A stretch of DNA of 61,209 nucleotides, the filler included. It is 6 parts of 6 records of this genome, joined end to end, with 100 filler letters (N's around TTAATTAATTAA, not from the genome) between each part and the next. Parts side by side here need not be neighbours in the genome. Positions count along the whole stretch, not along the records: positions 39,219 to 54,982 come from SRR31156797_30183; 5 more parts are not named here. The stretch is one strand, 5' to 3'. This document shows positions 23,865-55,082 of the stretch, piece by piece. The position numbers and the translations under genes were made by a program. The first letter of the stretch is position 1. Each line of letters starts with the position of its first letter. Under the pieces are notes generated by a model. It did no database searches. It had not been told where the DNA came from and was given only the letters and a program-made list of their open reading frames with translations.

Positions 23865-23873
23865 CAAAGTTTA

Positions 23874-26463: not shown

Positions 26464-26490
26464 TTTAAGAGAGAATTCTTATAAAATAAG

Positions 26491-27143: not shown

Positions 27144-27251
27144 TTGCAATCAAATTATGGAGTGCAAAAATAAATAATTTACTTTATTTTTTATGTGAAT
27201 TCAAAATTGTACTTTAACAAAAAGAATAACCATTTTAAATCTATATCTATC

Positions 27252-28442: not shown

Positions 28443-28445
28443 ATA

Positions 28446-28477
28446 AAAAGTGGTGACTCAATCGAGTCACCACTTTT
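28446..28477. terminator. bidirectional intrinsic terminator
   Basis: AAAAGTGGTGACTC-AATC-GAGTCACCACTTTT between convergent genes. Confidence 0.9.
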
Positions 28478-28480
28478 GTT

Positions 28481-29449: not shown

Positions 29450-29632
29450 GAAAATCTTATTTGACACCAAATATATGTATTACAATAAAGAGACAAGGTA
29501 TTTTTTACATTAAAGTGAAATTATTTAAAGCTAAATAACCAATACTTAGGTTAAGCTGATAATAATTATAGACCAAGGTAGAAATACCTTATTTTGAAGG
29601 ATAAAAAACGAATTAAATTAGAATGATTTGAA

Positions 29633-29640
29633 TATCTTTG
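29633..29640 (+). promoter_or_regulatory. Bacteroidota -7 promoter box upstream of lepA
   Basis: TATCTTTG(CA). Confidence 0.55.
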
Positions 29641-29710
29641 CAAATTCAAAAGAAGGTAAATTATACCTATTTTGAGATGAAAAATATTTAGTGTACGGGA
29701 ATATCATATT

Positions 29711-30595: not shown

Positions 30596-30695
30596 NNNNN
30601 NNNNNNNNNNNNNNNNNNNNNNNNNNNNNNNNNNNNNNNTTAATTAATTAANNNNNNNNNNNNNNNNNNNNNNNNNNNNNNNNNNNNNNNNNNNN
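30596..30695. other. artificial contig linker
   Basis: N-run with TTAATTAATTAA. Confidence 0.99.
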
Positions 30696-39118: not shown

Positions 39119-39218
39119 NNNNNNNNNNNNNNNNNNNNNNNNNNNNNNNNNNNNNNNNNNNNTTAATTAATTAANNNNNNNNNNNNNNNNNNNNNNNNNN
39201 NNNNNNNNNNNNNNNNNN
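39119..39218. other. artificial contig linker
   Basis: N-run with TTAATTAATTAA. Confidence 0.99.
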
Positions 39219-39220
39219 AT

Positions 39221-39297
39221 GTCAAGGTAGCTCAGCTGGCTAGAGCGCTGGTCTCATAAGCCGGAGGTCGAGAGTTCAAGTCTCTCTCTTGACACCA
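39221..39297 (+). tRNA. tRNA with CAT anticodon (probably elongator Met; Ile2 not excluded)
   Basis: Acceptor stem GTCAAGG/TCTTGAC, D-arm GCTC-AGCTGGCTA-GAGC, anticodon loop CTCATAA, T-loop GTTCAAGT, encoded CCA. Confidence 0.93.
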
Positions 39298-39361
39298 TTA
39301 TAACTAACCCTTACAAAATCAATTTTAATAAACTTTTTGATATGAACTCAAAGTTATAATT

Positions 39362-39859
39362 TTACTTATCTTCCTCATCTAAACTAATATACATAAGTAA
39401 ATACGCCGTATCTTCAGGGGTCCATCTTATTTCTCTTTCCAAATCCATTAAGTTACTATCTTTACTCACTCCATTGTTAAATCTATTGGCTACTTCAAAA
39501 GCTTTATTATGAATCTTTTTTTTACCAGAATATATAATGAAAGTTGGAATAATATCTTCGATTTTTTCAATATGAAAAATAGATCCATCTTTTATATATC
39601 TCAATAATAGACCAACTTGTAAAGAATGGTACTCTTTTTCCCGTAATTTCTCTAAAGGTTTATCTTTATATCCAACTGCTCTAAATGTATCAAACTCCTC
39701 TTTTACAAAATCTCGTAAGTTATCATTGTCATATTTTTCCAATGATGGAGGTAATGAAATATCTGATCGAGTCATCTTATCAAGATCTATTTTTTTTCTT
39801 GGAGGGTTGGCTCCTGTAGCATCTTTCACTTTTCCAACTATTTTATCAATAAAGCTCAT
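39362..39859 (-). CDS. hypothetical protein
   Basis: 165-aa ORF with AAGGAG RBS; no family recognised. Confidence 0.7.
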   Translation of the reverse strand: MSFIDKIVGKVKDATGANPPRKKIDLDKMTRSDISLPPSLEKYDNDNLRDFVKEEFDTFRAVGYKDKPLEKLREKEYHSLQVGLLLRYIKDGSIFHIEKIEDIIPTFIIYSGKKKIHNKAFEVANRFNNGVSKDSNLMDLEREIRWTPEDTAYLLMYISLDEEDK

Positions 39860-40120
39860 AAGTATCTCCTTTATATACTTTCAATAAAATATAATTATAT
39901 AATAACTTTTAATGAAAGACAATAAATATACTTTTAAATTGATATAAATATTTCCCTATTTCTATCCTCTTAGCTATTTATGTCATCTGTTTTGTGACAT
40001 TATTTATAGTAACATATCTTGTATTCTTCTATTTTATAGTGATTGCTAAAGCATTAACTCTAAATGATAAGCATTGTGCTATAATACATCGATATATAAA
40101 AAGGATACTAAAAACATCAT

Positions 40121-40252
40121 ATGAAAAAAACAGACTATATTTTTTGGACTATTTTAGGGTTGATCGCTCTTTTTTATCTTTTAAAAGGGAATGATATGCA
40201 TACTGAAAAATATCAAATGATCCAATCAGCACAAGTAGAGAATAAAAACTAA
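40121..40252 (+). CDS. 43-aa single-TM small protein (absent from ORF track)
   Basis: MKKTDYIFWTILGLIALFYLLKGNDMHTEKYQMIQSAQVENKN*; TGCTATAAT at 40077-40085 and AAGGA at 40101-40105; stops 4 nt from the galE stop. Confidence 0.55.
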   Translation: MKKTDYIFWTILGLIALFYLLKGNDMHTEKYQMIQSAQVENKN

Positions 40253-40256
40253 GTCT

Positions 40257-41318
40257 TTATCTATATCCATTTGGATTATTGCTTTGCCACCTCCAGCTGT
40301 CTTCGCACATTTGTTCAAGTGAATATTTTGCTTCCCACCCCAATATCTCTTTTGCATAAGATGGATCTGCATAATACTGAGCAATATCACCTGCTCGTCT
40401 AGCTACTATTTTATAGGGGATTTTTTTACCACTTACTTTTTCGAAGGCTTTCACCACATCTAATACACTATATCCAACACCTGTACCAAGATTTACAATA
40501 AGTGGTTTTTTATTTTCTATAGAGTTTAGATAATTGATCGCTTTTACATGACCACCTGCTAAATCTACCACATGGATATAATCTCTAATACCAGTTCCAT
40601 CATATGTATCATAATCATTTCCAAAAATATTTAAAAATTCTCTTTTGCCTACTGCAACTTGAGAGATAAATGGCATAAGGTTATTTGGTATAGTATTAGA
40701 ATCCTCACCTATCAATCCGCTTTGATGAGCCGCTACAGGATTAAAGTATCTTAAGATAGCTATTTTAAAAGAATTATCACTGATATAAAGATCTTCAAGG
40801 ATTCGTTCTATCATATACTTACTTGTACCATAAGGATTTGCCGTCCTACCTGCTGGAAAACTCTCTTTAATACCGACATGGTGATTTGATGATATATCTT
40901 TAGATACTTGAACAGTTTTAAAACACCCTTCCCCGTAAACTGTTGCACTTGAAGAGAAAACTATTTTTTTACAAGAAAACTCTTTCATTACCTCTAAAAG
41001 CTTGATAGTCCCTATCACATTAGTATCATAATATTCTAAAGGATTAGCTACAGATTCTCCAACGGCTTTTAATCCTGCAAAGTGGATCACAGAATCAATA
41101 CTATAATTGGAAAAAACCTCTTTTAAAGCTTTGGTATCTCTTATATCTCCTTGTATAAAAAAGACCTGTTTTTTTATAATTTTTTCAACTCTTTTTATTG
41201 CTTCAAAAGAAGAGGTAGCAAGATTATCATACACTATAAAGTGATATCCAGCACATGAGAGCTCCACTAAGGTATGAGTTCCTATATATCCAGCTCCTCC
41301 AGTAATTAAAATATTCAT
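40257..41318 (-). CDS. galE: UDP-glucose 4-epimerase
   Basis: TGGAGYIGTH, HFAGLKAVGES, FSSSATVYG, PYGTSK, LRYFNP, PNNLMP, DGTGIRDYIHVVDLA, WRWQSNNPNGY. Confidence 0.96.
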   Translation of the reverse strand: MNILITGGAGYIGTHTLVELSCAGYHFIVYDNLATSSFEAIKRVEKIIKKQVFFIQGDIRDTKALKEVFSNYSIDSVIHFAGLKAVGESVANPLEYYDTNVIGTIKLLEVMKEFSCKKIVFSSSATVYGEGCFKTVQVSKDISSNHHVGIKESFPAGRTANPYGTSKYMIERILEDLYISDNSFKIAILRYFNPVAAHQSGLIGEDSNTIPNNLMPFISQVAVGKREFLNIFGNDYDTYDGTGIRDYIHVVDLAGGHVKAINYLNSIENKKPLIVNLGTGVGYSVLDVVKAFEKVSGKKIPYKIVARRAGDIAQYYADPSYAKEILGWEAKYSLEQMCEDSWRWQSNNPNGYR

Positions 41319-41324
41319 CGTACT

Positions 41325-42170
41325 TTACTTGAAGTTTTCTTGTGGTTTTTCATCAATAAAATCGCAGCATACGATATCTACATCTTTTTGTACTAACTCA
41401 TTATATTCTAATCTATTTTGAGCTGAAAAAACAGAAATAGTGATAGAGTGAGATTTGTAATATTGGATGATCTTACGATTTAAAAAATATTTAGGGATAC
41501 AGATCCCTCCCCCATTTTTTGATAAGATTGATATTAGTTCAGTAGAAAGTTTGTGTGAGAAATAAGCATGCTGAAATCCTATCCCTTTTTTATGAAGTAG
41601 TGACTTATAAGACTTACTACCTATTATAATAAAATGGCTAAATGGTATCCTATTGATTCTAATTAATCGGCTTAAAAAACCAAAATATAAAGGTATAGGG
41701 ATATAAAATAGTATTTTTGGTATTTGAGCATCTAAATGATGAAGCTTAATCAGAGTTTGTGGAATCCATGAACCAAAATAAATGTGCTCTTTTAAAGAGT
41801 GTTTTTGTATCAATTCTAAATGGCTTGCTTCAAATCCATGATCTTTTATATCTATTAAAAGCTTTTGAGTTTTATTTTTTCTTTGGGAAAAAATAGCAAG
41901 AAGAGTATCTAAAGTAATAATTGAAAGATTATATTTCTCTATAAAATTTAAAATATCTTTAGCACTATTATTTGTGATAGATAAAAAGTGTTTTTCTTTT
42001 TTGATCTTATCATCATGATGGACAAAGATTACTCCATCTTTTGAAACTCTTGTATCAATTTCTAAAAAAGGGATATTAGTTTGTGTAGCCAATCTCATTG
42101 ACAATAAGGTATGTTCACATTTATCAAACCCTCTTAAACGATGGCTCAAAAAATTTCTATCATCAATCAT
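41325..42170 (-). CDS. glycerophosphodiester phosphodiesterase (GDPD) family protein
   Basis: SHR..G...EHTL, LEIDTRVSKDGVIFVHHD, LIDIK, terminal VDIVCCD. Confidence 0.8.
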   Translation of the reverse strand: MIDDRNFLSHRLRGFDKCEHTLLSMRLATQTNIPFLEIDTRVSKDGVIFVHHDDKIKKEKHFLSITNNSAKDILNFIEKYNLSIITLDTLLAIFSQRKNKTQKLLIDIKDHGFEASHLELIQKHSLKEHIYFGSWIPQTLIKLHHLDAQIPKILFYIPIPLYFGFLSRLIRINRIPFSHFIIIGSKSYKSLLHKKGIGFQHAYFSHKLSTELISILSKNGGGICIPKYFLNRKIIQYYKSHSITISVFSAQNRLEYNELVQKDVDIVCCDFIDEKPQENFK

Positions 42171-42493
42171 AAGCAATTACTTTATGAATATACTCTGTCA
42201 TCACTCATTCACTATATTTAATTTATCACTTCACATTGTAATCAACTTCAACTTATTATTAGATTTAATTAAGTGACCACTCCTTAAGACTATCAAATAC
42301 TCTTATAAATAATAAAAATAGTTTTATAACTTTTATTAACTACATTAAGATCATACTAAGGGTTTAAATGGTAGATTTTTCATAGAATAAAATATTAAAA
42401 AAAATTATAACTTTAATAGATAAAGTATTACTATTTCTTAAAAGGTATTGATAGTGTTTTTAACAAATTTGATCAATTATATAAAGTTTATCT

Positions 42494-43615
42494 ATGCAGT
42501 ATGATGTATCAGTTGTAACTACTGCATCTTTACCTTGGCGAACAGGCCCCTCATTTTTATCCCTTTGGCATGCTTCAGGATTAAGTAATCAAGGGCTGAG
42601 TGTTGCTTATATTATTCCATGGCTATCCCCAAAAGATCAAAAAAAGCTATATCAGAAAATCTACTTTGAAACTCAGGAAGAACAAATATCTTGGTTAAAA
42701 ACTGAAATAACCCGTTTAAATATGACAAGTGTCCCCCAAATACTTTTTTATCCTGCCTCTTATTTTTCATCTCTTCGAAGTATTCTCCCAAAAAACAATA
42801 TTTTTTCATCTATTCCACAAAGTGATAAGATAGTTTTAGAAGAGCCTGAACATCTCTGCTGGCATCCATTTACATCAAAAAAGAAACTCTCTTCAAAGAG
42901 TAAAATAATAGGTTGCGTATATACAAACTATGAGTACTATATTTCAAATGCCATGCCCAAAGGCCTAAAAGGCTTAAGTGGTTTAATAGAGAGTTGGAAT
43001 CGTTCTTTGATGAAAAAATATACAGATATGATTTTAAGTATTTCTCCTGCTGTAAATCTTGAAACCCTTTCACATCCACATGAGGAAGCTAGAATAACAG
43101 GAGTATTGGAGCCTTATTTTAACGTTCCTTCTGTTTTAGAAGAAGAGAAAAGAGTCTATTTTCTAGGTCGTCTTGTTTGGGATAAAGGTTTTGATATGCT
43201 TATAAAGATCTCTTCTAAACTGCATCTGCCTATAGACGTATATGGCGATGGACCAGATGAACTTTCTATTAAAGAGGCTTCTAAAAAAGAGGGAGCTTTA
43301 TTATCATTTAAAGGTCCCTCTTCAAGTCCATGGGAACTATTGTCAAATTATAAAGTTTTTTTTAATCCATCTCTAAGTGAAGTGTTATGTACTGCAACTG
43401 CTGATGCCTTAGTTGCAGGTCGTTTTGTGGTTCTGCCAAAATGCCATGCTAACAAACCTTTTATAAAATATAATAATACTTTTTTTTATGAAAGTTTTGA
43501 TGAAGCATTAGATATGATTGAAAAAGCCATGGGCTCTCAACCAAAATCACCAGAGAAAATTCGATATGATTTTGCATGGGAAAATGCTTGTAAAACTTTA
43601 AAGAGTTATTTTTAA
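42494..43615 (+). CDS. plant-type (DGD1/DGD2-like) digalactosyldiacylglycerol synthase, GT4
   Basis: VVTTASLPWRTG, IPWL, FYP....RSILP, VLEEPEHLCW, IG.VYTNY, G.LVW.KG, VYGDG.D, YKVFFNPS.SEVLCT.TA.AL..G, W: collinear with DGD motifs recalled from plants. Confidence 0.82.
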   Translation: MQYDVSVVTTASLPWRTGPSFLSLWHASGLSNQGLSVAYIIPWLSPKDQKKLYQKIYFETQEEQISWLKTEITRLNMTSVPQILFYPASYFSSLRSILPKNNIFSSIPQSDKIVLEEPEHLCWHPFTSKKKLSSKSKIIGCVYTNYEYYISNAMPKGLKGLSGLIESWNRSLMKKYTDMILSISPAVNLETLSHPHEEARITGVLEPYFNVPSVLEEEKRVYFLGRLVWDKGFDMLIKISSKLHLPIDVYGDGPDELSIKEASKKEGALLSFKGPSSSPWELLSNYKVFFNPSLSEVLCTATADALVAGRFVVLPKCHANKPFIKYNNTFFYESFDEALDMIEKAMGSQPKSPEKIRYDFAWENACKTLKSYF

Positions 43616-43632
43616 ATTAGGAGATAAAATAG

Positions 43633-44820
43633 ATGAAAAAAAGTACTGAAAAAATAATTGATTTAATGTATGAAGCGGTGCCTGAAGCTAGCTTTGAAGT
43701 TCGTTTTTGGGATGATGAGATAATTTCAAGAGGTAATGGTCCTGCTCAATTTCAACTATGGTTTAAAACAAAAACTGCTCTAGGGAGAGTTTTTTCAGAT
43801 GCTTTTTTAGGCTTTGGGGAAGAGTATATGACCAAAAATATTGAAGTTGATGGAGACATACAATTACTTTTTAAAATGGGAACATTTATTGGGATGGGGG
43901 ATAATCAAGTATCCTTTATGGAAAAACTCCGTTTTTTAGCTCTATTTATAGCAAATCAAAATACTTTAAAAGGTTCTAAAAAAAATATTGCCCATCACTA
44001 TGACTTAGGAAATGACTTCTATAGTCTTATTTTAGGTCCTACTATGGCATATACTTGTGCATATTTTAAAACACCTGAAGATTCAATAGACCAAGCCCAA
44101 CTCAATAAATTTGATCATGTTTGTAAAAAACTTGATCTAAAAGAGGGGGAAACTCTAGTTGATCTTGGTTGTGGATGGGGTGGATTCCTTATTTATGCTG
44201 CACAAAACTATGGTATTACAGGAGTTGGTGTCACTATTTCTCAAATGCAATATGACTATGCAGTCAATCGAATCAAAGAACTAAACCTTGAAGATAAGAT
44301 TCGTATAGAACTAAAAGACTTTAGAGAATTAACGGGGCAGTATGATAAACTCAGCTGTATTGGTATGATAGAACATGTAGGAAAAAAATTTATGCCTACC
44401 TTCGCAAAAAAAGTAAAAGAACTTTTAAAACCAACAGGTATTGGCCTTGTACATTATTTAGGAAATGATACACCATACCCTGAAGATCCTTGGACTGTAA
44501 AATATATATTTCCTGGAGCAGAGATCTCTCCTTTAGCTCTGGTTATTGAAGCATTAGCAGAGGAAGAGTTAAGTATTTTAGATGTGGAAAACTTACGTCG
44601 ACATTATGCAAAAACTGCACAATGCTGGCTTGATAAATTCAATGAGAATCTCGATACTATAAGGGATATGTATGGAGAGACTTTTATTAGACAATGGCAT
44701 ATCTATCTGAATATTGGTTACATCTCTTTTGAATATGGGGGAAATAGGTTATTTCAAATTCTAATTTCAAATGGAGTAAATAACGACTATCCTATAACAA
44801 GAGATCATATCTATGTGTAA
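43633..44820 (+). CDS. cfa: cyclopropane-fatty-acyl-phospholipid synthase family SAM methyltransferase
   Basis: LGFGEEYM, NIAHHYDLGNDFY, TMAYTCAYF, DLGCGWG, GMIEHVG, KYIFPG, ENLRRHYAKT. Confidence 0.9.
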   Translation: MKKSTEKIIDLMYEAVPEASFEVRFWDDEIISRGNGPAQFQLWFKTKTALGRVFSDAFLGFGEEYMTKNIEVDGDIQLLFKMGTFIGMGDNQVSFMEKLRFLALFIANQNTLKGSKKNIAHHYDLGNDFYSLILGPTMAYTCAYFKTPEDSIDQAQLNKFDHVCKKLDLKEGETLVDLGCGWGGFLIYAAQNYGITGVGVTISQMQYDYAVNRIKELNLEDKIRIELKDFRELTGQYDKLSCIGMIEHVGKKFMPTFAKKVKELLKPTGIGLVHYLGNDTPYPEDPWTVKYIFPGAEISPLALVIEALAEEELSILDVENLRRHYAKTAQCWLDKFNENLDTIRDMYGETFIRQWHIYLNIGYISFEYGGNRLFQILISNGVNNDYPITRDHIYV

Positions 44821-44840
44821 GATGAAAGTGAGTCAAAATT

Positions 44841-46001
44841 TTGAAAAGTAAAGTTTCCATTCTTTATACCGTGGCAGGTGGTGGTCACCTAGCAGCAGCA
44901 AAAGCTCTAAAAGTAGTACTTGAAAGCTCTGGTCGTTATGAGGTAAGTTTGGTAAACCCTTATCGAGAGATCATTGATGAGCTAGATTTTTTTAAATCCA
45001 CCTCTTATGAGAATGGAGAAGAGATCTATAATAAATTTATCCAAGAAAAAGGACATACTGGATTTTTATGTCTTCTTTTTTATGGGATTGTTATAGGAAG
45101 CACCTATCTAAGACGAAAAAAAGGGATCAAACTCTTTGAAGAACATTGGGAAAAAACAAAACCAGATCTAATCATTTCAGTTATGCCTATGTTAAATACA
45201 GGGATAGTTTGGACACTTGAACATTTTGATATTCCATTCATGGTACTTATGACTGACCTGAGAGAGCCTTCAAAATATACTTGGTTTCCAAAAAGTAATG
45301 AACCCACTGTTTTGTGTGGGACAAAAGATGCCTATGAAGATGGTCTAAAAAAACCTCATCCTAAAGAGAATACTCATCTTTTATCAGGACTTGTTGTAAA
45401 CCCTTCTTTTTATGATCAAGACCCTCTTGATATTAAAAAAGAGCGAGTTGTGAGTGGATTAAAAGAAAATCTAATAACTGCTTGTATTTTGTATGGAGGA
45501 TCAGGATCAGATAGAATGGTAGAACTTGCAAAAGTTTTACAAGATACACACTCTTTTGATAAAGAGTTTCAGATCATTTTTTTATGTGGTCGATCTCAAG
45601 CTGTAGCCCAAAAGATCAAGGCTTTAAAACTTTCTTTTTCTCATATTATTGTAGGGTATACAGATAAAATCCCTTATTATATACAGCTTGCAGATTTTAT
45701 GATAGGAAAACCTGGTCCTGGGTTTATTAGTGAATCACTGGTGATGAAACGTCCTCTTTTAATTGATCGTAAAAATGTATTACTACAAGAACATTATAAT
45801 ATCCAATGGCTGGATACCCATAATATGGGAAGCTCTTTTAAATCTTTAAGTTCCTTTAAAAAAGAGTTTAATGAGCTTTTAGACTCAGATAAACTACATT
45901 TAATACAACAAGAGGTCAATAAACACTCTAATCAAGCAGTCTTTGAAGTTTTACCAATAGTTGACTCTGTTATGGAAAAACACTATTCGTCGAAAGAATG
46001 A
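44841..46001 (+). CDS. MGDG synthase / UgtP-like GT28 diacylglycerol glycosyltransferase
   Basis: AGGGHLAAAKAL, KPDLIISV.P, MTDL..WF, GLVVNPSFY, YGGSG, CGR, GYTDKI, DFMIGKPGPG.ISE, QE.YN. Confidence 0.85.
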   Translation: MKSKVSILYTVAGGGHLAAAKALKVVLESSGRYEVSLVNPYREIIDELDFFKSTSYENGEEIYNKFIQEKGHTGFLCLLFYGIVIGSTYLRRKKGIKLFEEHWEKTKPDLIISVMPMLNTGIVWTLEHFDIPFMVLMTDLREPSKYTWFPKSNEPTVLCGTKDAYEDGLKKPHPKENTHLLSGLVVNPSFYDQDPLDIKKERVVSGLKENLITACILYGGSGSDRMVELAKVLQDTHSFDKEFQIIFLCGRSQAVAQKIKALKLSFSHIIVGYTDKIPYYIQLADFMIGKPGPGFISESLVMKRPLLIDRKNVLLQEHYNIQWLDTHNMGSSFKSLSSFKKEFNELLDSDKLHLIQQEVNKHSNQAVFEVLPIVDSVMEKHYSSKE

Positions 46002-46017
46002 TTTTGAAAGAAAACGT

Positions 46018-46662
46018 ATGGAATTTATAACTATCCCAACAGAACAAACCACAGCAGCAACTGATTTTATATTAGGACTTATGGCACTATTTTTTGCCTT
46101 CAAATTTAAATCGTCATCCCAATACTCTTTTGGGATTAAGATCTGGCGCCTGATCTTTCTTTTATTTGCTATTGGAGCTTTTTTAGGAAGTATTTTTCAT
46201 GGTCTTGTTTTAGAACAAGAGATAAAAGTCATACTTTGGTTTTCACTTCTTTTTTCTTTTGTTATCGTTGTTTCATTATTTGTTATTGCGATGATTTATG
46301 ATCTTAAAGGGGAACAGAGTGCTAAAAAACTTCTTCTTCCAATTTTTAGTGTAGGTGGTGTAGTATATGGCATAATGCTTCTTTTTTCTGGAAAATTTAT
46401 TATTTTAATAGGGTATGAAGTACTTGCAATGCTAAGTGCATTGATAGGGTATTTTATCGGAGCTTTAAAAACAAAAACACAAGATATGTGGTTTATGACA
46501 TTAGGAGTACTTATTACAATTATTGCATCGGCAGTGCAAGCATTAAGTGATATTGTCATTGAATTTATTTGGATATTTGATAAAAATGGAGTTTTTCATC
46601 TTATTCAAATTGTCGCTATTTTATGTTTTATTTATGCATTTAAATTAAGAAAGTGGGTATAG
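46018..46662 (+). CDS. multi-pass (about 7 TM) membrane protein, DUF6962-like
   Basis: EQTTAATDFILG, LGSIFHG, AVQA, NGVFHLIQ; start at MEFITIP assumed. Confidence 0.6.
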   Translation: MEFITIPTEQTTAATDFILGLMALFFAFKFKSSSQYSFGIKIWRLIFLLFAIGAFLGSIFHGLVLEQEIKVILWFSLLFSFVIVVSLFVIAMIYDLKGEQSAKKLLLPIFSVGGVVYGIMLLFSGKFIILIGYEVLAMLSALIGYFIGALKTKTQDMWFMTLGVLITIIASAVQALSDIVIEFIWIFDKNGVFHLIQIVAILCFIYAFKLRKWV

Positions 46663-46665
46663 TTT

Positions 46666-46674
46666 TGATACAAT
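46666..46674 (+). promoter_or_regulatory. extended -10 promoter for the desaturase gene
   Basis: TGATACAAT followed by AAGGAG RBS and ATG at 46700. Confidence 0.5.
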
Positions 46675-46699
46675 CTCTTATTAAACTTAAGGAGACCAT

Positions 46700-47617
46700 A
46701 TGATAGATAAATCTTATTATGAAGTTGATGTGGCTCGATTTTATCGAGATCTAATTTTATATAGTTTTGTTTTCGTAGTAACGTTTAGTGCGTGTTTTTA
46801 TCTCAGTGGTATATGGTTTGTACTATCTTTAATTATATCAGCATCAGCGATCCATCATGCAGCGTGTTTTGTTCATGAATTGACACATCAATCACGTAAT
46901 AAAAAACTTAAAACCTTCGCTATCATTTGGAACGCAACTATAGGAGCTATTGCTTTAGTACCTTATGTTCGTTTTATTAAACCTCATATTATGCACCATA
47001 CAATTGGGATTTTTGCAACAGAAGAAGATCCCCAATATGTTCTGCTACGAAAATCTAAATGGTTGTACTTTTTAGTCTTGTTTGTTGTTCCTTTTATTGC
47101 ACCTTTTTATAACTTCTTACTCGTAGTAACTGCAAGTATTCCTGGAGTTGATGTGGAAGCAAAAGTTGATGCTTATCTTGCACAATGGAAACTTCAACTA
47201 GCAGGAGAGCTCGAACCTGATCATAAAAGATCAGTAACATTATGGAGTCGATACTATCTAGTTTTATTTATATTCTATATTAGTTTTTTTCCTGAAACTT
47301 TTTGGGTATATTATGCAGTTCAAGTTGTTGCATGGATGTTAACATCTTGGAGAGTTCCTCTTGAACATCGTTTAGAAAAACATATAAAAGAATCAAATGA
47401 ACATGATCAAATGTATGATAGTTTTACAGTAGAATCACCATATGCAGATTTTCTTCAGCCTTTATCTTTACAGTTTCACACAGCTCATCATATGTACCCA
47501 GGCGTGCCTTATCACAATTTACCAAAACTCCATAGAGCTCTAAAAGAGAGTAATGAAGAGTATAGAAATAGTATAGTCTCATTTAAAACTGCTGTCATTG
47601 GGAAAGGAAGAGAATGA
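46700..47617 (+). CDS. membrane fatty acid desaturase family protein
   Basis: Three His boxes: HELTH, HIMHH, FHTAHH(MYPGVPYHNLPKLH). Confidence 0.88.
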   Translation: MIDKSYYEVDVARFYRDLILYSFVFVVTFSACFYLSGIWFVLSLIISASAIHHAACFVHELTHQSRNKKLKTFAIIWNATIGAIALVPYVRFIKPHIMHHTIGIFATEEDPQYVLLRKSKWLYFLVLFVVPFIAPFYNFLLVVTASIPGVDVEAKVDAYLAQWKLQLAGELEPDHKRSVTLWSRYYLVLFIFYISFFPETFWVYYAVQVVAWMLTSWRVPLEHRLEKHIKESNEHDQMYDSFTVESPYADFLQPLSLQFHTAHHMYPGVPYHNLPKLHRALKESNEEYRNSIVSFKTAVIGKGRE

Positions 47618-49152
47618 CTAATGCCCAAAAAGTATTAGAGCTTCAAAATTATATTTTGTTTAAAGGATTTTCAACTGAAGAGTTGGAAATATTTGCAGAT
47701 ACTATTGAGGTAAAGAGTTTTTCAAAAGGGGAATATCTCTTTCATGAAAATGATACTTCTAAAGAGGTCTATTTGATACGATCAGGAAAAGTAGAAGTGG
47801 TCTTTGAAAATCAACATGAGCATTTAAAAGAGTTTTTCTCAAAAGGTGATATTGTTGGTGAACTTGCGATGCTTGATGGAGTTCCAAGAAGTAATAGCGT
47901 AGTGTGTATAGAAGATACCGTTACTTTTACCCTAGAAGTTTCAAAACTCCCTCTTACCTTAACACTTCTAAATCGTTTAAATGTCAATATTGCCTTGGTC
48001 ACTGCATATAAACTAAGACATCAACATATAGAAGATGATATTTTACTTACTGATGAGATACCACAGAATATCAAAGAGTTACGACGATTTTCGATGCTAG
48101 CTCAATTAACAGATCAAGAACTTTTGATTTTACATGATGTATTAGAAACAAAAATATTACAACCACAAGAGTATCTTTTTTATGAAAATGACTCTTCCAA
48201 TGAGATCTACTTTATCCAATCAGGTGCCTTTGATATCATTAAATCAGATGCATCAGGAGATGAGCAAATCATTGCTACAGTACAAGAGGGAAATGTTGTA
48301 GGAGAATTGGCTTTTTCTGATGGAGCTCCAAGATCAGCTTCTGTACGAGCACAAAATGAAAGTGAAGTACTTATCTTAAATATCAATCATCTCCCTAGTA
48401 ATTTAGCACTCTTAAATCGTCTTGCAAATCATATCACTCAAATGAGTTCACAACATGTGCGTCATACCAATGCTGAACATGTGGAGAGTTTAAAGCGTGA
48501 ATTAAAATCTGAACAGTTACGAAATGACTTTGGTAAGTTTTTTATCTATACCTTAGGTGTCTTTTCAATCGGTACTTTGGTCAATTACTTTTTACATACC
48601 TATTTACAATCATTAAATGTCTATGGAGAGCTCTTTAAATGGAGTTATCTTTTTATCCTACTTGTTCCATCTCTTCTTGTTATTTGGAAGATGAATATCC
48701 CTTTAGAGGAGCTTGGACTTACTCTTAAAGGATGGAAAAAATCTTTAAAAGAAGGAGTTATAGTCTCTTTGGTCTTTAGTGCTGTACTTATTGGTTCCTT
48801 TACTCTGATTATTCAACCTTTATATGATATTCCCACAAAGGTTGTTGAGTATCAGTTTTGGGGATCGATTGGATATATTATCCACTCAGCCTTACAAGAG
48901 ATGCTTGCAAGAGGGGTATTACAATCTTCGTTTAGAAGATTCTTCAATGATAAAAAAGGGATCAATTCTGTTTTACTCACCGCAGCACTTTTTGGTATAT
49001 TTCATATCCATTTTGGACTCTTTGCAGTTTTAGCTACAATGGTCACTGGTATCTTTTTTGGATTATTATATTTAAGACATCAAAACTTAATAGGGGTAAC
49101 AATTTTCCATACAGTATCTGGAATAGCGGCATTTTCTCTTGGAGTTTTATAA
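47614..49152 (+). CDS. tandem cNMP-binding domains fused to a CAAX/CPBP (Abi-family) intramembrane protease domain
   Basis: GELAMLDGVPRSNSV and GELAFSDGAPRSASV; C-terminal TMs with QEMLARG, FGIFH, FH. Confidence 0.82.
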   Translation: MTNAQKVLELQNYILFKGFSTEELEIFADTIEVKSFSKGEYLFHENDTSKEVYLIRSGKVEVVFENQHEHLKEFFSKGDIVGELAMLDGVPRSNSVVCIEDTVTFTLEVSKLPLTLTLLNRLNVNIALVTAYKLRHQHIEDDILLTDEIPQNIKELRRFSMLAQLTDQELLILHDVLETKILQPQEYLFYENDSSNEIYFIQSGAFDIIKSDASGDEQIIATVQEGNVVGELAFSDGAPRSASVRAQNESEVLILNINHLPSNLALLNRLANHITQMSSQHVRHTNAEHVESLKRELKSEQLRNDFGKFFIYTLGVFSIGTLVNYFLHTYLQSLNVYGELFKWSYLFILLVPSLLVIWKMNIPLEELGLTLKGWKKSLKEGVIVSLVFSAVLIGSFTLIIQPLYDIPTKVVEYQFWGSIGYIIHSALQEMLARGVLQSSFRRFFNDKKGINSVLLTAALFGIFHIHFGLFAVLATMVTGIFFGLLYLRHQNLIGVTIFHTVSGIAAFSLGVL

Positions 49153-49172
49153 CTCTTTTGAGAGATAAATCT

Positions 49173-49181
49173 TGCTATAAT
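49173..49181 (+). promoter_or_regulatory. extended -10 promoter upstream of the RND gene
   Basis: TGCTATAAT, then GAGGA RBS. Confidence 0.55.
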
Positions 49182-49219
49182 TATATACAATTGAATAGAA
49201 ATAATGAGAGGAATGATTA

Positions 49220-52200
49220 GTGATTAAATACATTATAGAGTTTGGTTTAAAAAAACCTATACTCAACTATATGCTTTTACTTTTTATCTTTATCCTCTCG
49301 GTCTTTGCCTATTTAAAGATTCCAAAAGAGATTTTTCCAATCTCAACACTTGATGCTATCAATATTACAGGAACTTATGCAGGTGCAAGTAGTGATATTC
49401 TTGATCGTATGGCTGTCTCAAAAATAGAAGATGAGCTAGCTAATTTAAGTGAAGCAGATACTATCTCAACGGTTGTGAAAACTGGATACTTTAATATAAA
49501 GATCGATCTAAAAGATGGGAAAAATCTTTCAAAAACAATCGATGATGTAAAAGACATTATCTCTACTATACGATCAGACCTACCAAGTGATATGGATGAA
49601 CCTATCGTCAAAGAGGTAACCCAAGCCTTTCCGCTTATTACTGTTTCCATATCTGGTTCAGATTCTACTGAAGAGCTTTTAGATATAGCAGATGATATCA
49701 AAGCAAAACTCAATAGTTTAGGGGATTTAAGTGAACTCAATATTTGGGGGAAAAGTGATAAAGAACTTTTAATCACACTTGATGAGAAAAAAATAGAAAC
49801 CTATGGGTTTGATAAGCAAAACATAATTAACCTCATCTCTCAAACAAGCTCTATATTTCCCGCTGGAATCATAAAAGATAAAGGGATACACTATTATCTT
49901 AGCTCACAAAATGGAGAAAAAGATTTAAAAAAGATCTCCCAAACCCTTTTAAAAATCAATAATAAAACCATCTATTTAAAAGATATAGCAAAAGTAGAAT
50001 ATAAACTTGCAGATGTAAGTACACTTTCACATTTTAATGGGAAAAAAAATATCTCAATTGGGATAAATAAAGGGAAAACCGGAGATAGTATCACTCTTGT
50101 AAAGCAGATAAAACAGATACTAAAAGAGGAAGCTCCAAACTATAAAGGGATCACCTTTGATACTTATGGTGATACTTCTATTTGGATAAAGAATAGACTA
50201 AATACCGTTGTATCAAATATCCTTTTTGGAGTTATTCTACTTACTGTTGCTCTTTTTTTCTTTATCAATGCCAGAATAGCTTTTATAGTTGCTATTGGGA
50301 TACCAACAAGTTTTATGATAGGACTTATAAGTGCCGAACAACTTGGATATAGTCTCAATATGCTCTCTTTATTGGGTGCTTTACTTGCTCTTGGAATGCT
50401 GGTAGATGAAGCTATCGTTGTAGGAGAAAATATCTACCGTCATATGGAGATGGGGAAAGATAAAATGACAGCAGCTCTTGATGGAGCTGTGGAGATGTAT
50501 CCTGCTGTTTTAACAGCAACAGCAACAACAGTATTTGCTTTTTTACCAATTTTAATGATGACTGGAGAGACGGGAGTATTTATGAGAATACTCCCTATTA
50601 TGATCACTATTTTACTTCTAAGTTCCCTCTTAGAAGCTTTTTTCTTTTTACCCCTACATGCACAACATACATTAAAAGTAAATCATGAAGAGAAACGATC
50701 TGAACGTATTTGGGATTTTAATAAAAAGCTTTACTATTCAATTCTTTCTTTTGTACTACGATGGAAATATATAGCCGTTATACTTTTACTTTCAGTTATC
50801 ATTGGCTCTACAATATTTTTTGCAAAATTATTGAAATTTGAGTTTTTACCAGAGTTTGATTCAACACAGGTTTATATAAGTGGTTCAGTAGGAGTTGGTC
50901 ATGATATTAATGATACAGAGGAAAAGGTTCGTCATATTGAGAAAAAACTTCTTGAGAACTTTGAACTTGGACGAGATATTGATAGTTTTAGTTCCGTAAT
51001 GGGAGTAAAACTTGATGGGAAACAGCTTCCTCAAAATGAAGAATTTTATTTTCAATTCTTCGTCTCTTTAAAAGAGAGAGCACCTACAAATGTTTTTGAT
51101 AAATATATCAATCCATATTTAAGTCCTAAATATGATGCTACAGATATGACAAGAGAACTAAGCGCTCAAACCTTATCAGCACAAATCTCAAAAGTACTTG
51201 AAGAGGAGCAAAACTCACAAGAGTTTAGTGAATTAACCATTAGTGTGCCTGGAGCTGGTATCGTAAAATATGATATTGAGATATCTCTTAGTGGAGATGA
51301 TGATAAAAAACTCTCCCATGCAATCAAAACCCTTAAAAGTAAACTTAGCTCTATAAAAGGGGTTGAGAATATTGCAGATGATATTCTAGTAGGAAATCTT
51401 GATCTAAAATTTAGTGTTAATCATTATGGGCAACAACTAGGCTTCAATGAAACAACTCTAGTCAATACTTTAAAACCATACTATTTTAAAGGAACTTTTT
51501 CAAAGATGTATGATCAAAGTGGGATTGTAGATATTGTATTTCAAAGTAAAGATAAAGATCAAAAAGAGAGTCTAGATAGTTTTGAAGTGGTAGTTCCAAA
51601 TAGTACACAAAAAGTACTTTTAAAAGAGATTGTTGATTTTCAAACTTTCCCTAGCCTTTCACAAATATTTAAAGAGGATGGAACAGCGATCCAAACTATC
51701 ACAGCATCTTTAAATGGTATCACAAGTGAAGAGGTATTTGCCCAATTAGATCCTACATTAAAAGCTCTTGAAAAAGATGTAAGAATAGATATCAAAGGGG
51801 AAGAGAAAGAGAATCAAAAAGTAAAAACAGAAATGATGCAAGCATTTATCATCGCTCTGATCTTAATCTTTATCTCACTTGTATGGATGTTTGATTCACT
51901 TATAAAATCATTTATCATTTTAAGTACTATTCCTCTTTCAGTACTAGGAGTACTTGTGGGACATTTTGTTATGGGACTTAATCTTAGTATGCCAGGGCTG
52001 ATTGGAATTGTAGGACTTGCAGGAGTTGTGGTAAATGATGGGATCATTATGATGGATTTTATTAAAAAGGCCAAAGATCTTGAAGAGATGAAACAACTTG
52101 CACTTTTACGTCTTCGACCAATTTTACTTACTTCACTTACTACACTTTTAGGACTCTGTACCCTGATATTTTTTGCCTCAGGACAATCTTTGATCCTACA

Positions 52201-52306
52201 ACCTATGGCAGTAGCGTTAGGATTTGGTATCCTTTGGGCTACTATCTTAAATCTTTATTATGTACCTATGGTTTATAGAATTATCTATTTACGAAAAGCT
52301 TCCTAG
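49220..52306 (+). CDS. AcrB/RND-family permease
   Basis: 1028 aa; GMLVDEAIVVGENI, GVVVNDGI, RLRPILLTSLTT, QPMAVALGFG. Confidence 0.94.
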   Translation: MIKYIIEFGLKKPILNYMLLLFIFILSVFAYLKIPKEIFPISTLDAINITGTYAGASSDILDRMAVSKIEDELANLSEADTISTVVKTGYFNIKIDLKDGKNLSKTIDDVKDIISTIRSDLPSDMDEPIVKEVTQAFPLITVSISGSDSTEELLDIADDIKAKLNSLGDLSELNIWGKSDKELLITLDEKKIETYGFDKQNIINLISQTSSIFPAGIIKDKGIHYYLSSQNGEKDLKKISQTLLKINNKTIYLKDIAKVEYKLADVSTLSHFNGKKNISIGINKGKTGDSITLVKQIKQILKEEAPNYKGITFDTYGDTSIWIKNRLNTVVSNILFGVILLTVALFFFINARIAFIVAIGIPTSFMIGLISAEQLGYSLNMLSLLGALLALGMLVDEAIVVGENIYRHMEMGKDKMTAALDGAVEMYPAVLTATATTVFAFLPILMMTGETGVFMRILPIMITILLLSSLLEAFFFLPLHAQHTLKVNHEEKRSERIWDFNKKLYYSILSFVLRWKYIAVILLLSVIIGSTIFFAKLLKFEFLPEFDSTQVYISGSVGVGHDINDTEEKVRHIEKKLLENFELGRDIDSFSSVMGVKLDGKQLPQNEEFYFQFFVSLKERAPTNVFDKYINPYLSPKYDATDMTRELSAQTLSAQISKVLEEEQNSQEFSELTISVPGAGIVKYDIEISLSGDDDKKLSHAIKTLKSKLSSIKGVENIADDILVGNLDLKFSVNHYGQQLGFNETTLVNTLKPYYFKGTFSKMYDQSGIVDIVFQSKDKDQKESLDSFEVVVPNSTQKVLLKEIVDFQTFPSLSQIFKEDGTAIQTITASLNGITSEEVFAQLDPTLKALEKDVRIDIKGEEKENQKVKTEMMQAFIIALILIFISLVWMFDSLIKSFIILSTIPLSVLGVLVGHFVMGLNLSMPGLIGIVGLAGVVVNDGIIMMDFIKKAKDLEEMKQLALLRLRPILLTSLTTLLGLCTLIFFASGQSLILQPMAVALGFGILWATILNLYYVPMVYRIIYLRKAS

Positions 52307-52330
52307 GATAAACACTTTTTCTGTAAGGAT

Positions 52331-53230
52331 ATGAATAAAAGAATCTTAATACTTGGCTCAAACGGTTATCTAGGATCCCATCTTTGTAAATATCTAAAAC
52401 AGTATACTGGACACTTTTTAATAGGAGTTTCTAAAGGAGAGATACGAAATACTTTTGTCGATCAATATCTCTCTTTAGACCTTTCAAACAAAAGAGACCT
52501 AAAAGAACTTTATCCTCTTTCTTTTGATCTAGTTTTTGACTTTATCTCTTATATACAACCAAATGAATATAATTTAATGATACAAGATATTGAAAAGCGA
52601 TTAGAAAACTTTTATTCTCTAGTAACTACTCTTGTTAAAAACAAACCTCTTATCTTTATCTCTAGTGCTGGAACAGTCTATGGGAATACTACTAAAACCT
52701 GTATAGAAGAAGCTCCTACAAATGGATTAAGTCCCTATGCAAAACAAAAGATTCTCCAAGAGGAGTTTTTATTAAAACATCATCCCCTTACAACCATTCT
52801 TCGAGTAACAAATCCATATGGAGAAAATCAAATAGTAAAACATGGTGTTGGTTTTGTAGCTAGAGCGTTACATTGTATTAAAACTGGAGAACCATTAGTT
52901 TTAAGTGTCCCTATTGAAACAAGTAGAAACTATATCTATATCAATGACGTGATCAAAACATTTGATTTTTTTATAAATAATACTCATTATGGACAAATCT
53001 ATAATATAGCCTCAAAAAGTAGTTTATCTCTAGCAGAAGTGATCCAAAAAATTGAACTTTTTACACAAAAAAAGATGAATATCCATCTTAAAAACAAAAA
53101 TTTTGATGAGATACAATACATCAAACACAATATTGTCTCAAATCAAAAGCTATCCCTTTTACTAGATACCAAAAAATTTTATAGCTTTGATCAATTTATA
53201 AGTGAGTATATCTCCAAACCTCATCATTGA
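52331..53230 (+). CDS. NAD-dependent epimerase/dehydratase
   Basis: ILGSNGYLG, ISSAGTVYG, SPYAKQK, LRVTNPYG, RNYIYIND. Confidence 0.85.
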   Translation: MNKRILILGSNGYLGSHLCKYLKQYTGHFLIGVSKGEIRNTFVDQYLSLDLSNKRDLKELYPLSFDLVFDFISYIQPNEYNLMIQDIEKRLENFYSLVTTLVKNKPLIFISSAGTVYGNTTKTCIEEAPTNGLSPYAKQKILQEEFLLKHHPLTTILRVTNPYGENQIVKHGVGFVARALHCIKTGEPLVLSVPIETSRNYIYINDVIKTFDFFINNTHYGQIYNIASKSSLSLAEVIQKIELFTQKKMNIHLKNKNFDEIQYIKHNIVSNQKLSLLLDTKKFYSFDQFISEYISKPHH

Positions 53231-54231
53231 AAATGTTTTTTATTTTCTAAAAGATATTTTTGAAGCTCCTTTGGAGTTGATATATAATACTTTTGATCAC
53301 CTTTTACAACATTTTCAATAAATACTTTATGATTATAAAAACTATTTAGATGGGAATTAGTATCTTTAAAACAAACATATCTATTATTTTCTATCTTATT
53401 TGAGATACCATCAATGTACCATAAAGCAAAAAATCCATCAAGTCCACCATCTAAAAGTAAAGACCACTTACCCTTTATGATATTTGTATCTTGTAGTTTA
53501 TTATTGAGATGAAAATGGGTTGGGGTAAAGTATGATATATCTATATTATTATTTTTACAAAAACTATCTATGGCGATAAGAGCCTCTATCCCCTCTTTGG
53601 TATAAAACTGCTTTGTAGGTTTTGCAGTAAATTTTTCAGGTACTAAGCAGCTTTCATACTTATCTGATCTTATCATGGCTCCTTGATCATTCATATAATA
53701 AGAATAGCCAAAAAGATTATATGATATATCCACAATGGTATCTGTGATCTTTTTAAAATCTAGACTTAATAGATGTTTGATTTTATAAAATAGTTTATCT
53801 TCATCATACACCTGTTTTATATATCTTGAAAAGATATCTTTTTGATCATACCCATTTAAACAATGATCATCAACTAAGTAATAAACCCTATGGATATTTT
53901 TAATCTGCTTAGAGTCTAACTGCTTGAAAAACTCTAAAACACTAATAGAGTTTCCATATAATGACGCAAAATTTAAAATAGGAATACCTGATCCATCATA
54001 GTGCAATTGTTGTGATCTTGATGTGCCAAGGACTAAAGAGTATTGTTGTTCCCCTTTTAACATATTAAAAAGTTTTGTAGTCTCTAACTCACTGGTATAT
54101 CTAAACTTTTTCTCTGTTAAACTTGAACCAACCACTTGATAAGGATCGATCAAAACTTCAAGAGTTATAAATAAAAGATAAAAGCTAAAAAAGCTATAGA
54201 AAAATAGTTTGATCCATCTTTTTGCTACCAT
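53224..54231 (-). CDS. periplasmic partner of the MBOAT, probable SGNH-like acyltransferase
   Basis: N-terminal TM plus IDPY, LVLGTSRS, FKDTNSH; directly downstream of the MBOAT. Confidence 0.6.
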   Translation of the reverse strand: MVAKRWIKLFFYSFFSFYLLFITLEVLIDPYQVVGSSLTEKKFRYTSELETTKLFNMLKGEQQYSLVLGTSRSQQLHYDGSGIPILNFASLYGNSISVLEFFKQLDSKQIKNIHRVYYLVDDHCLNGYDQKDIFSRYIKQVYDEDKLFYKIKHLLSLDFKKITDTIVDISYNLFGYSYYMNDQGAMIRSDKYESCLVPEKFTAKPTKQFYTKEGIEALIAIDSFCKNNNIDISYFTPTHFHLNNKLQDTNIIKGKWSLLLDGGLDGFFALWYIDGISNKIENNRYVCFKDTNSHLNSFYNHKVFIENVVKGDQKYYISTPKELQKYLLENKKHFQ

Positions 54232-54246
54232 TCTCCTTATCCTTTT

Positions 54247-54981
54247 TTAAAAATTAAAATATAAAAACTCTGAGGTTTTATTAAATGATAAAAATGTGAT
54301 CAGAAAAAGTATAAGAGTATAAAACAATGAACCATATCCAACTTTAAACTTTTTTAACATCTCATTTGAATTTTTAAATACTAAAACTACTATAAGAAGA
54401 AAAAGAAGGAATGTCCACACAGGATAAAAATGGTCACCTTGTGCATTCCCTATAAAACCACCAAAAATAAGACCATAAGGTTTTGACAGAACCTGCTCAT
54501 TTTCATACACATAAGGGATAAAAACCCCACCTAATCCTATCATTCCTCCTAAAACTCTTCTTATATCATCCCAATCATTGGCTCTAAAAAAGACCCAAGT
54601 AATATTTATAAAATTAAAAGTGATCAACCAAGCAAACCAACCCCACATTTGAATCCCTAATTTACTCCAAAGTCTATGTACCACTAAAGCAATACCATGC
54701 AAAAAACCCCAAAGTATAAAAGTCCAGCCAGCACCATGCCAAACACCTGCTAGAATAAAGGTCACCATCAAATTATTATAAGTTTGAAACTCCCCTTTTC
54801 TATTTCCACCTAATGGGATATAGATATAATCTTTTAAAAAGCGAGAAAGGGTCATATGCCATCTTCTCCAAAACTCTTGAATATTTGCAGCTTTATAAGG
54901 ACTGTTAAAATTGATAGGTAATCGGATATTAAATAAAAGAGCCAATCCTATTGCCATATCAGTATATCCACTAAAATCAAA
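54247..54981 (-). CDS. MBOAT O-acyltransferase, AlgI/DltB-like (5'-truncated)
   Basis: FDFSGYTDMAIG, NFNSPY, FWRRWHMTLS, YIPLGGNR, GVWHGAGWTF, FLYFNF. Confidence 0.95.
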   Translation of the reverse strand, partial: FDFSGYTDMAIGLALLFNIRLPINFNSPYKAANIQEFWRRWHMTLSRFLKDYIYIPLGGNRKGEFQTYNNLMVTFILAGVWHGAGWTFILWGFLHGIALVVHRLWSKLGIQMWGWFAWLITFNFINITWVFFRANDWDDIRRVLGGMIGLGGVFIPYVYENEQVLSKPYGLIFGGFIGNAQGDHFYPVWTFLLFLLIVVLVFKNSNEMLKKFKVGYGSLFYTLILFLITFLSFNKTSEFLYFNF

Positions 54982-54982
54982 A

Positions 54983-55082
54983 NNNNNNNNNNNNNNNNNN
55001 NNNNNNNNNNNNNNNNNNNNNNNNNNTTAATTAATTAANNNNNNNNNNNNNNNNNNNNNNNNNNNNNNNNNNNNNNNNNNNN
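54983..55082. other. artificial contig linker
   Basis: N-run with TTAATTAATTAA. Confidence 0.99.

Follow-up and report, generated by a model that had tools for sequence, protein, structure and literature searches.

The digalactosyldiacylglycerol (DGDG) synthase of plants and algae has no agreed ancestry. Homologues of DGD1 were reported from plants and algae only, with none detected in cyanobacterial genomes, as far as the accessible text of that study goes (Sato and Awai, 2016, PMC4742570). The same excerpt describes the cyanobacterial enzyme DgdA as a GT4 glycosyltransferase of a different domain make-up, related to SqdX/SQD2, which transfers a second sugar onto monoglycosyl-diacylglycerol. 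Bacterial DGD1 homologues are already in print, with those of proteobacteria presented in the available part of a later paper that left the direction of gene movement undecided (Sato, 2019, PMC6946739). Here we describe a DGD-like gene at positions 42494..43615 (+ strand) of a 61,209-nt stretch of DNA, referred to below as the window, on a contig assigned to an Arcobacteraceae-like member of the Campylobacterota. The gene belongs to a known but uncharacterized bacterial clade, here termed group A, and is located in an eight-gene lipid block (the island) together with a GT28 glycosyltransferase related to Arabidopsis MGD1. Judging from sequence comparisons, it is reasonably probable that the block encodes a bacterial route to diglycosyl-diacylglycerol, with the GT28 enzyme acting first and the DGD-like enzyme attaching the second sugar, and that the block was laterally gained. 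The kind of reaction and the CAZy family would then be those of DgdA, with both the likeness and the difference in domain make-up taken from the published description of that enzyme.

The open reading frame (ORF) begins with ATG, encodes 373 amino acids and contains, in order, TTASLPWRTG, IPWL, FYP, RSILP, LEEPEHLCW, TNY, VWDKG, YGDGPD and YKVFFNPSLSEVLCTATADALVAG, as had been listed in the first-pass annotation, a model's reading of the letters alone. Residue alignment to Arabidopsis thaliana DGD2 (GT4; PDB 8P6S) provides a plant counterpart for every one of these motifs. When all PDB sequences were searched with phmmer, the DGD2 chain 8p6s_A was matched at E 1.2e-50 (175.8 bits, query 4-367 to chain 8-385), whereas the second-best match reached only E 0.12 and five PDB sequences in total were found at E<=1. 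The similarity is therefore specific to the DGD family and, at the level of sequence, real, end to end and far beyond chance, in agreement with the annotation's proposal of full-length homology and of a bacterial member of the DGD1/DGD2 family rather than an ordinary GT4. In the profile checks that had also been proposed, Pfam recognized only the generic Glycos_transf_1 domain (PF00534, 38.8 bits; cut-off 26.4) and no NCBIfam model fitted, the best being TuaC at 17.3 bits (cut-off 550). An AlphaFold2 model of high predicted quality (predicted local distance difference test, pLDDT, 91.9; predicted template modeling score, pTM, 0.89) has two Rossmann-like alpha/beta halves which, with the C-terminal Glycos_transf_1 domain, correspond to a GT-B fold. 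The product is predicted to be a membrane-associated, retaining GT-B (CAZy GT4) UDP-sugar:glycolipid glycosyltransferase. Unlike DGD1, the protein is without a DGD1-type N-terminal extension and, unlike DGD2, nothing in it matches DGD2 past residue 385. The ORF is uninterrupted and its GC content at third codon positions (GC3) is 0.21, compared with 0.20-0.24 in flanking host genes, and the absence of introns and of an N-terminal extension as well as the host-like, AT-rich codon usage had been read correctly.

The family is large and is centered on marine Alphaproteobacteria. The DGD-like protein has 486 relatives at E<=1e-5 in a 90%-clustered collection, and 1016, 481 and 156 among 50% representatives at E<=1e-3, E<=1e-10 and E<=1e-30, respectively. 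The closest, P0001 (74% identity), has 375 aa and is encoded on a metagenome contig of 1.8 kb; it is followed by metagenome proteins at 54-48% identity and then by approximately 90 bacterial proteins at 38-51%, among which Thalassobaculum, Rhodospirillum, Thiorhodovibrio, Endothiovibrio, Magnetospirillum, Pseudodonghicola, Roseibium and Breoghania are named. Named plant and algal DGD1/DGD2 rank after these bacterial relatives, at 30-34% identity, with the plant DGDs at 31-34%. Scanning 185,579 species genomes with the family alignment yielded 45 loci, 32 of group-A type and 13 more distant. The former are mostly from Rhodospirillales, Rhodobacterales and Stappiaceae, plus one Gammaproteobacteria metagenome-assembled genome (MAG); the latter are from MAGs of Pseudomonadota, Anaerolineales, Myxococcales and Desulfobacteraceae and from a clade labeled cyanobacteria or "uncultured bacterium." A further distant representative, P0128, comes from Flexibacterium corallicola/Pseudovibrio sp. 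The nearest named relatives (40-53% identity) are Thalassobaculum, Thalassospira, Terasakiella, Roseibium, Stappia, Pseudodonghicola, Rhodospirillum and others, and the DGD-like protein evidently falls in the proteobacterial group of Sato (2019, PMC6946739), to judge from the sections available. It differs in its host, a member of the Campylobacterota, and those sections describe neither the conserved gene block nor the histidine loss discussed below. A metagenome scan for close relatives returned 32 loci, none of them close (all at 27-36% identity), so P0001 could not be placed in context. These loci (L228-L259) encode uninterrupted DGD-family proteins, some of them on contigs of up to 127 kb, and may stem from bacteria or from intron-poor picoeukaryotes.

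The most distinctive property of group A is its donor pocket. In DGD2, according to the accessible portion of the structural report (PMC12022483), the phosphates are contacted by Thr21, Gly22 and Lys243, the ribose by Glu321 and the galactose by Asn26 and His151 (both at O6'), Lys238 (O2') and Asp313 (O3'). Gly22, His151, Lys243 and Glu321 are given there as entirely conserved in GT4 enzymes of related structure, and SPS and BshA lose their activity when the equivalent of His151 is mutated (PMC12022483). The UDP contacts Thr21, Gly22 and Lys243 are unchanged in the DGD-like protein, as is His129 of the EEPEH motif. Among its top 95 relatives (P0001-P0095), Thr and Gly are kept in 90, with gaps in the other five, and Lys243 is kept in all 95. 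The sugar-facing residues are altered. At DGD2 positions 26, 151, 238, 313 and 321 the protein has Leu22, Tyr143, Arg226, Glu296 and Asp304, with none of the four galactose-contacting side chains identical to DGD2 and only Gly22 and Lys243 retained from the four entirely conserved residues. The "plant-type" label of the first-pass annotation therefore goes too far, as His151, Glu321 and Asn26 are all replaced.

These replacements are shared across the clade. In the same 95 relatives the His151 column reads Met in 88, Tyr in two, His in two and Thr, Leu or Val in one each; the Asn26 column reads Phe (45), Leu (26), Ile (18), Val (1) or Asn (1), with four gaps; and the Lys238 column reads Arg (77), Lys (7), Ser (6) or Ala (5). 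Asp occupies the Glu321 position in 29 of the 95. All 31 group-A rows from named genomes are without His151 (29 Met, 1 Leu, 1 Tyr). The group-A signature is a hydrophobic residue at 26, a residue other than His at 151 and usually Arg at 238, and the DGD-like protein has Leu, Tyr and Arg at these positions. Asn, His and Lys are present without exception in the 25 rows ranked lower (P0096-P0120), in which all named proteins are from plants and algae, and N-H-K-[D/E]-E is carried by 143 of 238 full-length family members. Of the two metagenome proteins that branch at the base of group A, P0095 reads Asn-His-Lys (the canonical state) and P0090 Leu-His-Arg, while the crown reads hydrophobic-Met-Arg; from their sequences, P0095 and P0090 look like intermediates in the pocket change. 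Other GT4 structures have His here as well, so that its loss in crown group A is, as read from the alignments, derived. The UDP contacts are retained while hydrophobic or aromatic residues take the place of both O6' contacts, and group A may thus use the same nucleotide with another sugar or another mode of binding.

The altered pocket bears most directly on the possibility that the enzyme is a functional equivalent of plant DGD, that is, an alpha-1,6-galactosyltransferase converting MGDG (the monogalactosyl form) and UDP-galactose to DGDG, with the block as a complete plant-style MGD plus DGD pathway. The full set of family motifs and the full-length homology are consistent with this, as is the presence of a bona fide GalE and an MGD1-like GT28 in the same block, a co-encoding that resembles the Arabidopsis galactolipid system. 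Several relatives also carry the JGI automatic name "digalactosyldiacylglycerol synthase," which is an annotation and not a test. However, Leu and Tyr occupy the two O6' positions in this protein, and hydrophobic residues or Met do so throughout group A; in addition, the O2' contact Lys238 has become Arg and the O3' contact Asp313 has become Glu. Galactosyl transfer in the plant manner is consequently a possibility that we consider unlikely, though the best placed of the alternatives. Under the favored reading, a second-sugar transferase in a two-step pathway, the second sugar need not be galactose, since neither of the O6'-binding side chains of DGD2 has been kept.

The evolutionary position of the gene was examined in three trees, namely a FastTree of 238 full-length rows, a quick IQ-TREE search of 100 rows under LG+C20+F+G4 with posterior mean site frequencies (PMSF) and a careful search of 67 rows under the same model. 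All three agree that the eukaryotes form one clade and that the DGD-like protein lies in a separate one. The eukaryotic clade, which is made up of all named eukaryotes and the long unnamed rows, has a support of 100 in the quick tree (Shimodaira-Hasegawa-like approximate likelihood ratio test, SH-aLRT) and of 100/100 in the careful one. Group A, with the DGD-like protein inside, is supported by 99 and 100/99, respectively, and is a 20-row bacterial clade in the careful tree. Within it, the DGD-like protein groups with P0001 (100/100), then with P0002 and then with the Pseudomonadota MAG contig L177/L001. The gene does not branch from within the algae, and the alga-to-bacterium transfer raised in the first-pass annotation is contradicted by its exclusion from the eukaryotic clade and its inclusion in a bacterial one. 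In the maximum-likelihood phylogeny that the annotation had called for, the protein falls with group A and not with the eukaryotes. In contrast to the Arabidopsis DGDs, the gene is outside the eukaryotic clade and in a bacterial gene block, and its activity is a prediction from sequence.

In another reading, group A with this gene would be the sister group or the donor of the eukaryotic DGD1/DGD2 clade, and approximately unbiased (AU) tests leave a sister relationship unrejected. With 100 rows p was 0.668, the constrained tree being 11.6 log-likelihood units better than the quick free tree, and with 67 rows p was 0.244, the constrained tree being 4.08 units worse. Against this, a 97/85 split in the careful tree separates the two, with 16 other bacterial or metagenomic rows on the side of the eukaryotes and 10 on that of group A, and they were sisters in 0 of 200 bootstrap trees. 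Plant and algal DGDs also score 197-251 bits against canonical bacterial forms (those keeping Asn26, His151 and Lys238 of DGD2; Anaerolineales, Myxococcales and Pseudomonadota MAGs and P0123 were compared) but 124-192 bits against group A, and crown group A has lost the His151 that eukaryotes keep. The backbone is weak and, as the trees are unrooted, the direction of transfer between bacteria and eukaryotes cannot be read from them; the nearest non-family GT4s, at E ~0.1, would root them unreliably. We therefore do not favor the sister/donor reading, which appears quite improbable. By sequence, better candidates than the DGD-like gene exist for the ancestor of plant DGD, namely bacterial lineages with a plant-type pocket, which are closer. 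Separately, L212, L213, L214 and L216-L219 form a DGD-family clade (100 SH-aLRT, long stem) from MAGs labeled cyanobacteria or "uncultured bacterium," and PsaA/PsaB were found in all five of the genomes searched from this clade. Its members keep Asn26, Lys238 and Glu321, all except L212 keep His151, and position 129 is Gln throughout. The clade is located on the eukaryote side of the 97/85 split in the careful tree, where binning error or long-branch effects are possible.

Group A also has a conserved gene neighborhood. We counted homologues of the window's genes by tblastn (E<=1e-8, at least half of the query covered) in flanks of up to 8 kb around the 32 group-A loci, several of which are cut by contig ends, making the counts lower bounds. 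GT28 was found in 26 of the 32; a fusion of cyclic-nucleotide (cNMP)-binding domains with a CPBP/Rce1-like intramembrane protease domain (cNMP-CPBP) in 24; a desaturase in 23; a cyclopropane-fatty-acid (CFA) synthase in 17; and a GalE-like protein (at least 34% identity) in 15. Outside group A, GT28 was near the DGD-like gene in only 1 of 13 loci. The window block has all four of GT28, desaturase, CFA-synthase-like protein and cNMP-CPBP. The related contig L001 holds seven genes together, namely desaturase, CFA synthase, DUF6962, cNMP-CPBP, GT28, epimerase and DGD-like. Alpha proteobacterium BAL199 has two group-A copies (L181 and L191) ~10 kb apart on one contig, with a GT28 between them.

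The island itself spans 40249..49217 (8.97 kb; GC 32.0% compared with 30.7% in the flanks). It opens on the minus strand with GalE, the UDP-glucose 4-epimerase (40257..41318; TIGR01179 galE, 428.4 bits, cut-off 262.3), and a glycerophosphodiester-phosphodiesterase-like (GDPD-like) protein (41325..42176). The latter has an N-terminal match only (PF03009, 38.9 bits, residues 20-60) and a counterpart in 0 of the 45 related loci. The remaining genes are on the plus strand. The DGD-like gene is followed by a CFA synthase (cyclopropane-fatty-acyl-phospholipid synthase) family methyltransferase (43633..44820; PF02353, 271 bits; NF008686, 285.6 bits, under the cut-off of 400) and by the GT28 of the MGD1/UgtP kind (44841..46001; PF04101 and a weak PF06925). 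The best solved structure for this GT28 is A. thaliana MGD1 (4wyi, E 7.8e-16, full length), with the processive glucosyltransferase UgtP (9wde) at E 1.4e-9, and the GT28 gene anticipated by the first-pass annotation is thus indeed a co-encoded MGD1 relative, with GalE in addition. Next are a DUF6962 membrane protein (45961..46662; PF22285, 129 bits), of a family also found in the L001 cluster, and a membrane fatty-acid desaturase family protein (46700..47617; PF00487, 91 bits). The last gene encodes the cNMP-CPBP protein (47614..49152; PF00027 in two stretches, PF02517). A DNA repeat of its two cNMP domains lies at 47731-47786 and 48169-48224, and this fusion accompanies glycolipid genes across genera.

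The neighborhood also speaks to the idea that the enzyme acts on some other acceptor, for example a surface glycan or a membrane lipid of another kind, with its similarity to DGD reflecting shared ancestry only. The altered donor pocket, the six group-A loci with no nearby GT28 and the inclusion in the block of DUF6962 and cNMP-CPBP, genes without a known role, are in line with this. However, GT28 is near in the other 26 loci, genes modifying lipid acyl chains co-occur, and no polysaccharide export or polymerase genes were found in the block by Pfam and NCBIfam scans. We judge a different acceptor to be slightly more improbable still than a sister or donor role in plant DGD ancestry, and the lipid pathway with GT28 as its first step is retained as the favored reading.

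The island is a presence/absence polymorphism between near-identical strains. By blastn, the MAG contig G005:C178 matches the gene-bearing contig only at 40091-40248 (89%) and at 49218-52301, and in G005:C178 the segment matching 40091-40248 sits 83 bp upstream of the start of an AcrB-like gene that is 98% identical at the nucleotide level. As G005:C178 joins 40248 directly to 49218, the 8.97-kb block at 40249-49217 is present here and absent from the same site in G005. To the right of the island is the host gene in question, encoding an AcrB-family RND (resistance-nodulation-division) transporter (49220..52306, +; PF00873, 476 bits). To the left, in host DNA, is a small 43-aa ORF (40121..40252, +), which was recovered only in L097, so the ancestral arrangement of the family cannot be read from it. 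A tRNA-Met (CAT) at 39221..39297 (+; ARAGORN; Rfam RF00005, 64.1 bits) is ~950 bp from the island's left edge and has 98% identity to G006 and 95% to G007. The DGD-like gene is rare in Campylobacterota. Searches with the DGD-like protein found it in 0 of the five closest genomes (E<=1e-5), 0 of 184 Arcobacteraceae species genomes and 0 of 401 sampled Campylobacterota genomes (both E<=1e-20), while the same search recovered 4 of 4 known carrier genomes as a positive control. The block was likewise found in 0 of 80 AcrB neighborhoods of relatives.

Only one contig of the window goes with the DGD-like gene. Read directly, the window consists of six separate contigs joined by five linkers of the form N44-TTAATTAATTAA-N44 (9442-9541, 18800-18899, 30596-30695, 39119-39218 and 54983-55082). 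The contigs come from different organisms; inferences that cross a linker are invalid, and the whole window cannot serve to identify the bacterium. The first-pass annotation's bacterial source holds for the gene-bearing contig, which is the fifth segment (39219-54982; 15,764 bp, GC ~31%) and has an Arcobacteraceae-like backbone, but not for the window, a concatenation of six unrelated contigs. The AcrB-like protein has 99% identity to a Campylobacterales MAG contig and 72-78% identity to many Arcobacteraceae genomes, and both ends of the contig (the tRNA-Met end and the MBOAT end) match Arcobacteraceae genomes. By these sequence matches the host is an Arcobacteraceae-like member of the Campylobacterota, a group which we take to be non-photosynthetic. 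A Logan contig of 15,712 nt covers 39271-54982 in one piece with 0 differences. One public DNA run holds the stretch and is probably its source sample, so that the Logan contig is an independent assembly yet not independent data; no RNA runs holding the stretch are listed. Arcobacteraceae-like contig ends, host-like composition and the single spanning Logan contig show that the gene is neither eukaryotic nor chimeric; a eukaryotic or chimeric contig was an outcome which the annotation had named as fatal to its own proposal. That the gene is eukaryotic (algal) DNA through recent alga-to-bacterium transfer, contamination or an assembly chimera, for which only the fame of the family as a plant enzyme and the composite nature of the window could be cited, is highly improbable given host-like DNA to the left and right of the block, arranged as in the G005 contig, an identical Logan contig (probably of the same sample), a GC3 equal to that of host genes and a position inside the bacterial and outside the eukaryotic clade.

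As to the remaining contigs, that at 18900-30595 has 98% DNA identity over 11.7 kb to a MAG labeled uncultured Saccharicrinis sp. (Bacteroidota) and encodes PNPase, prolyl oligopeptidase and SucC. A Saccharicrinis-like Bacteroidota host, which this segment would have implied, was considered and dropped, as the linkers show the window to be a concatenation. The two contigs within 1-18799 (higher GC, ~40-47%) have phage portal, large terminase and primase genes as well as an ATP-dependent DNA ligase and a DUF234 ATPase, and had no match in the Saccharicrinis MAG.

The pathway we propose for the block would proceed in two glycosylation steps. The GT28 (MGD1/UgtP-like) would put the first hexose on diacylglycerol to give monoglycosyl-diacylglycerol, and the DGD-like GT4 would then add a second, alpha-linked sugar to give diglycosyl-diacylglycerol. 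GalE may supply UDP-galactose, and the desaturase and CFA-synthase-like methyltransferase may modify the acyl chains. By analogy with plants and marine bacteria, the product would be a membrane lipid free of phosphorus. While the sequences themselves show the homology, the pocket changes, the gene linkage, the island polymorphism and its rarity in Campylobacterota, we infer the acceptor, the alpha linkage, the sugar and the physiological role. Lateral gain by an Arcobacteraceae lineage, with a donor close to it in base composition, is the most likely origin of the block. Agt-type enzymes are first-step glycosyltransferases acting on diacylglycerol. Those of the phosphate-stress systems that include PlcP are, in the part of the literature available, also GT4s which make phosphorus-free glycolipids in marine bacteria, and they offer a plausible physiological analogy. 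In contrast to Agt/PlcP systems, no PlcP gene was seen in the block here.

Several observations weigh against this proposal. The histidine that is essential in the SPS and BshA equivalents is Tyr in the DGD-like protein, and Glu321 is Asp. In L001, the nearest named cluster, the epimerase belongs to the NDP-sugar epimerase/dehydratase (short-chain dehydrogenase/reductase, SDR) family and is not a clear GalE, scoring 126 bits with the galE model (cut-off 262), and galactose is thus not assured as the donor. Six of the 32 group-A loci have flanks in which no GT28 was seen and must also be counted here, although some of them are cut by contig ends. With respect to lateral gain, the composition of the block is that of the host (GC3 0.18-0.23, equal to the flanks). 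No mobility genes were found, nor flanking direct repeats or att-like sites, and a plasmid search of 72,556 records gave no tblastn match at E<=1e-20. Insertion of the island is not formally distinguishable from a deletion in G005. Finally, our literature search found no characterization of any group-A product and no description of the conserved block or the lost histidine, although the supplementary trees of the Sato papers may show more. In the accessible text, a Labrenzia CFA-synthase paper (PMC6213206) has no word starting with "glycosyl," and a Paenarthrobacter study (PMC11719660) reports having found no DGDG synthase candidate.

A broader reading joins these strands, and we offer it only tentatively, as one that could well be wrong. 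The DGD family would be primarily bacterial. Group A, with GT28, epimerase, desaturase, CFA-synthase-like and cNMP-CPBP genes, would be a laterally moving glycolipid pathway in which the second step does without the "essential" GT4 histidine and probably draws on a donor sugar that is not galactose. The true donor of plastid DGD would lie among bacteria with a plant-type pocket, such as the Flexibacterium/Pseudovibrio protein, the Anaerolineales and Myxococcales MAGs or the clade in PsaA/B-bearing cyanobacterial MAGs. If this were true, the long-open origin of DGD1 would become directly testable. For the family, bacterial homologues in a conserved block with an MGD1-like GT28 point to a two-step glycolipid pathway in non-photosynthetic marine bacteria, and the largest bacterial clade, with its re-built sugar pocket, provides a hypothesis on specificity and on how a retaining GT4 may work without the conserved histidine. 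For the Arcobacteraceae-like host, the presence of this block differs between near-identical strains, in a phylum where it was otherwise not found.

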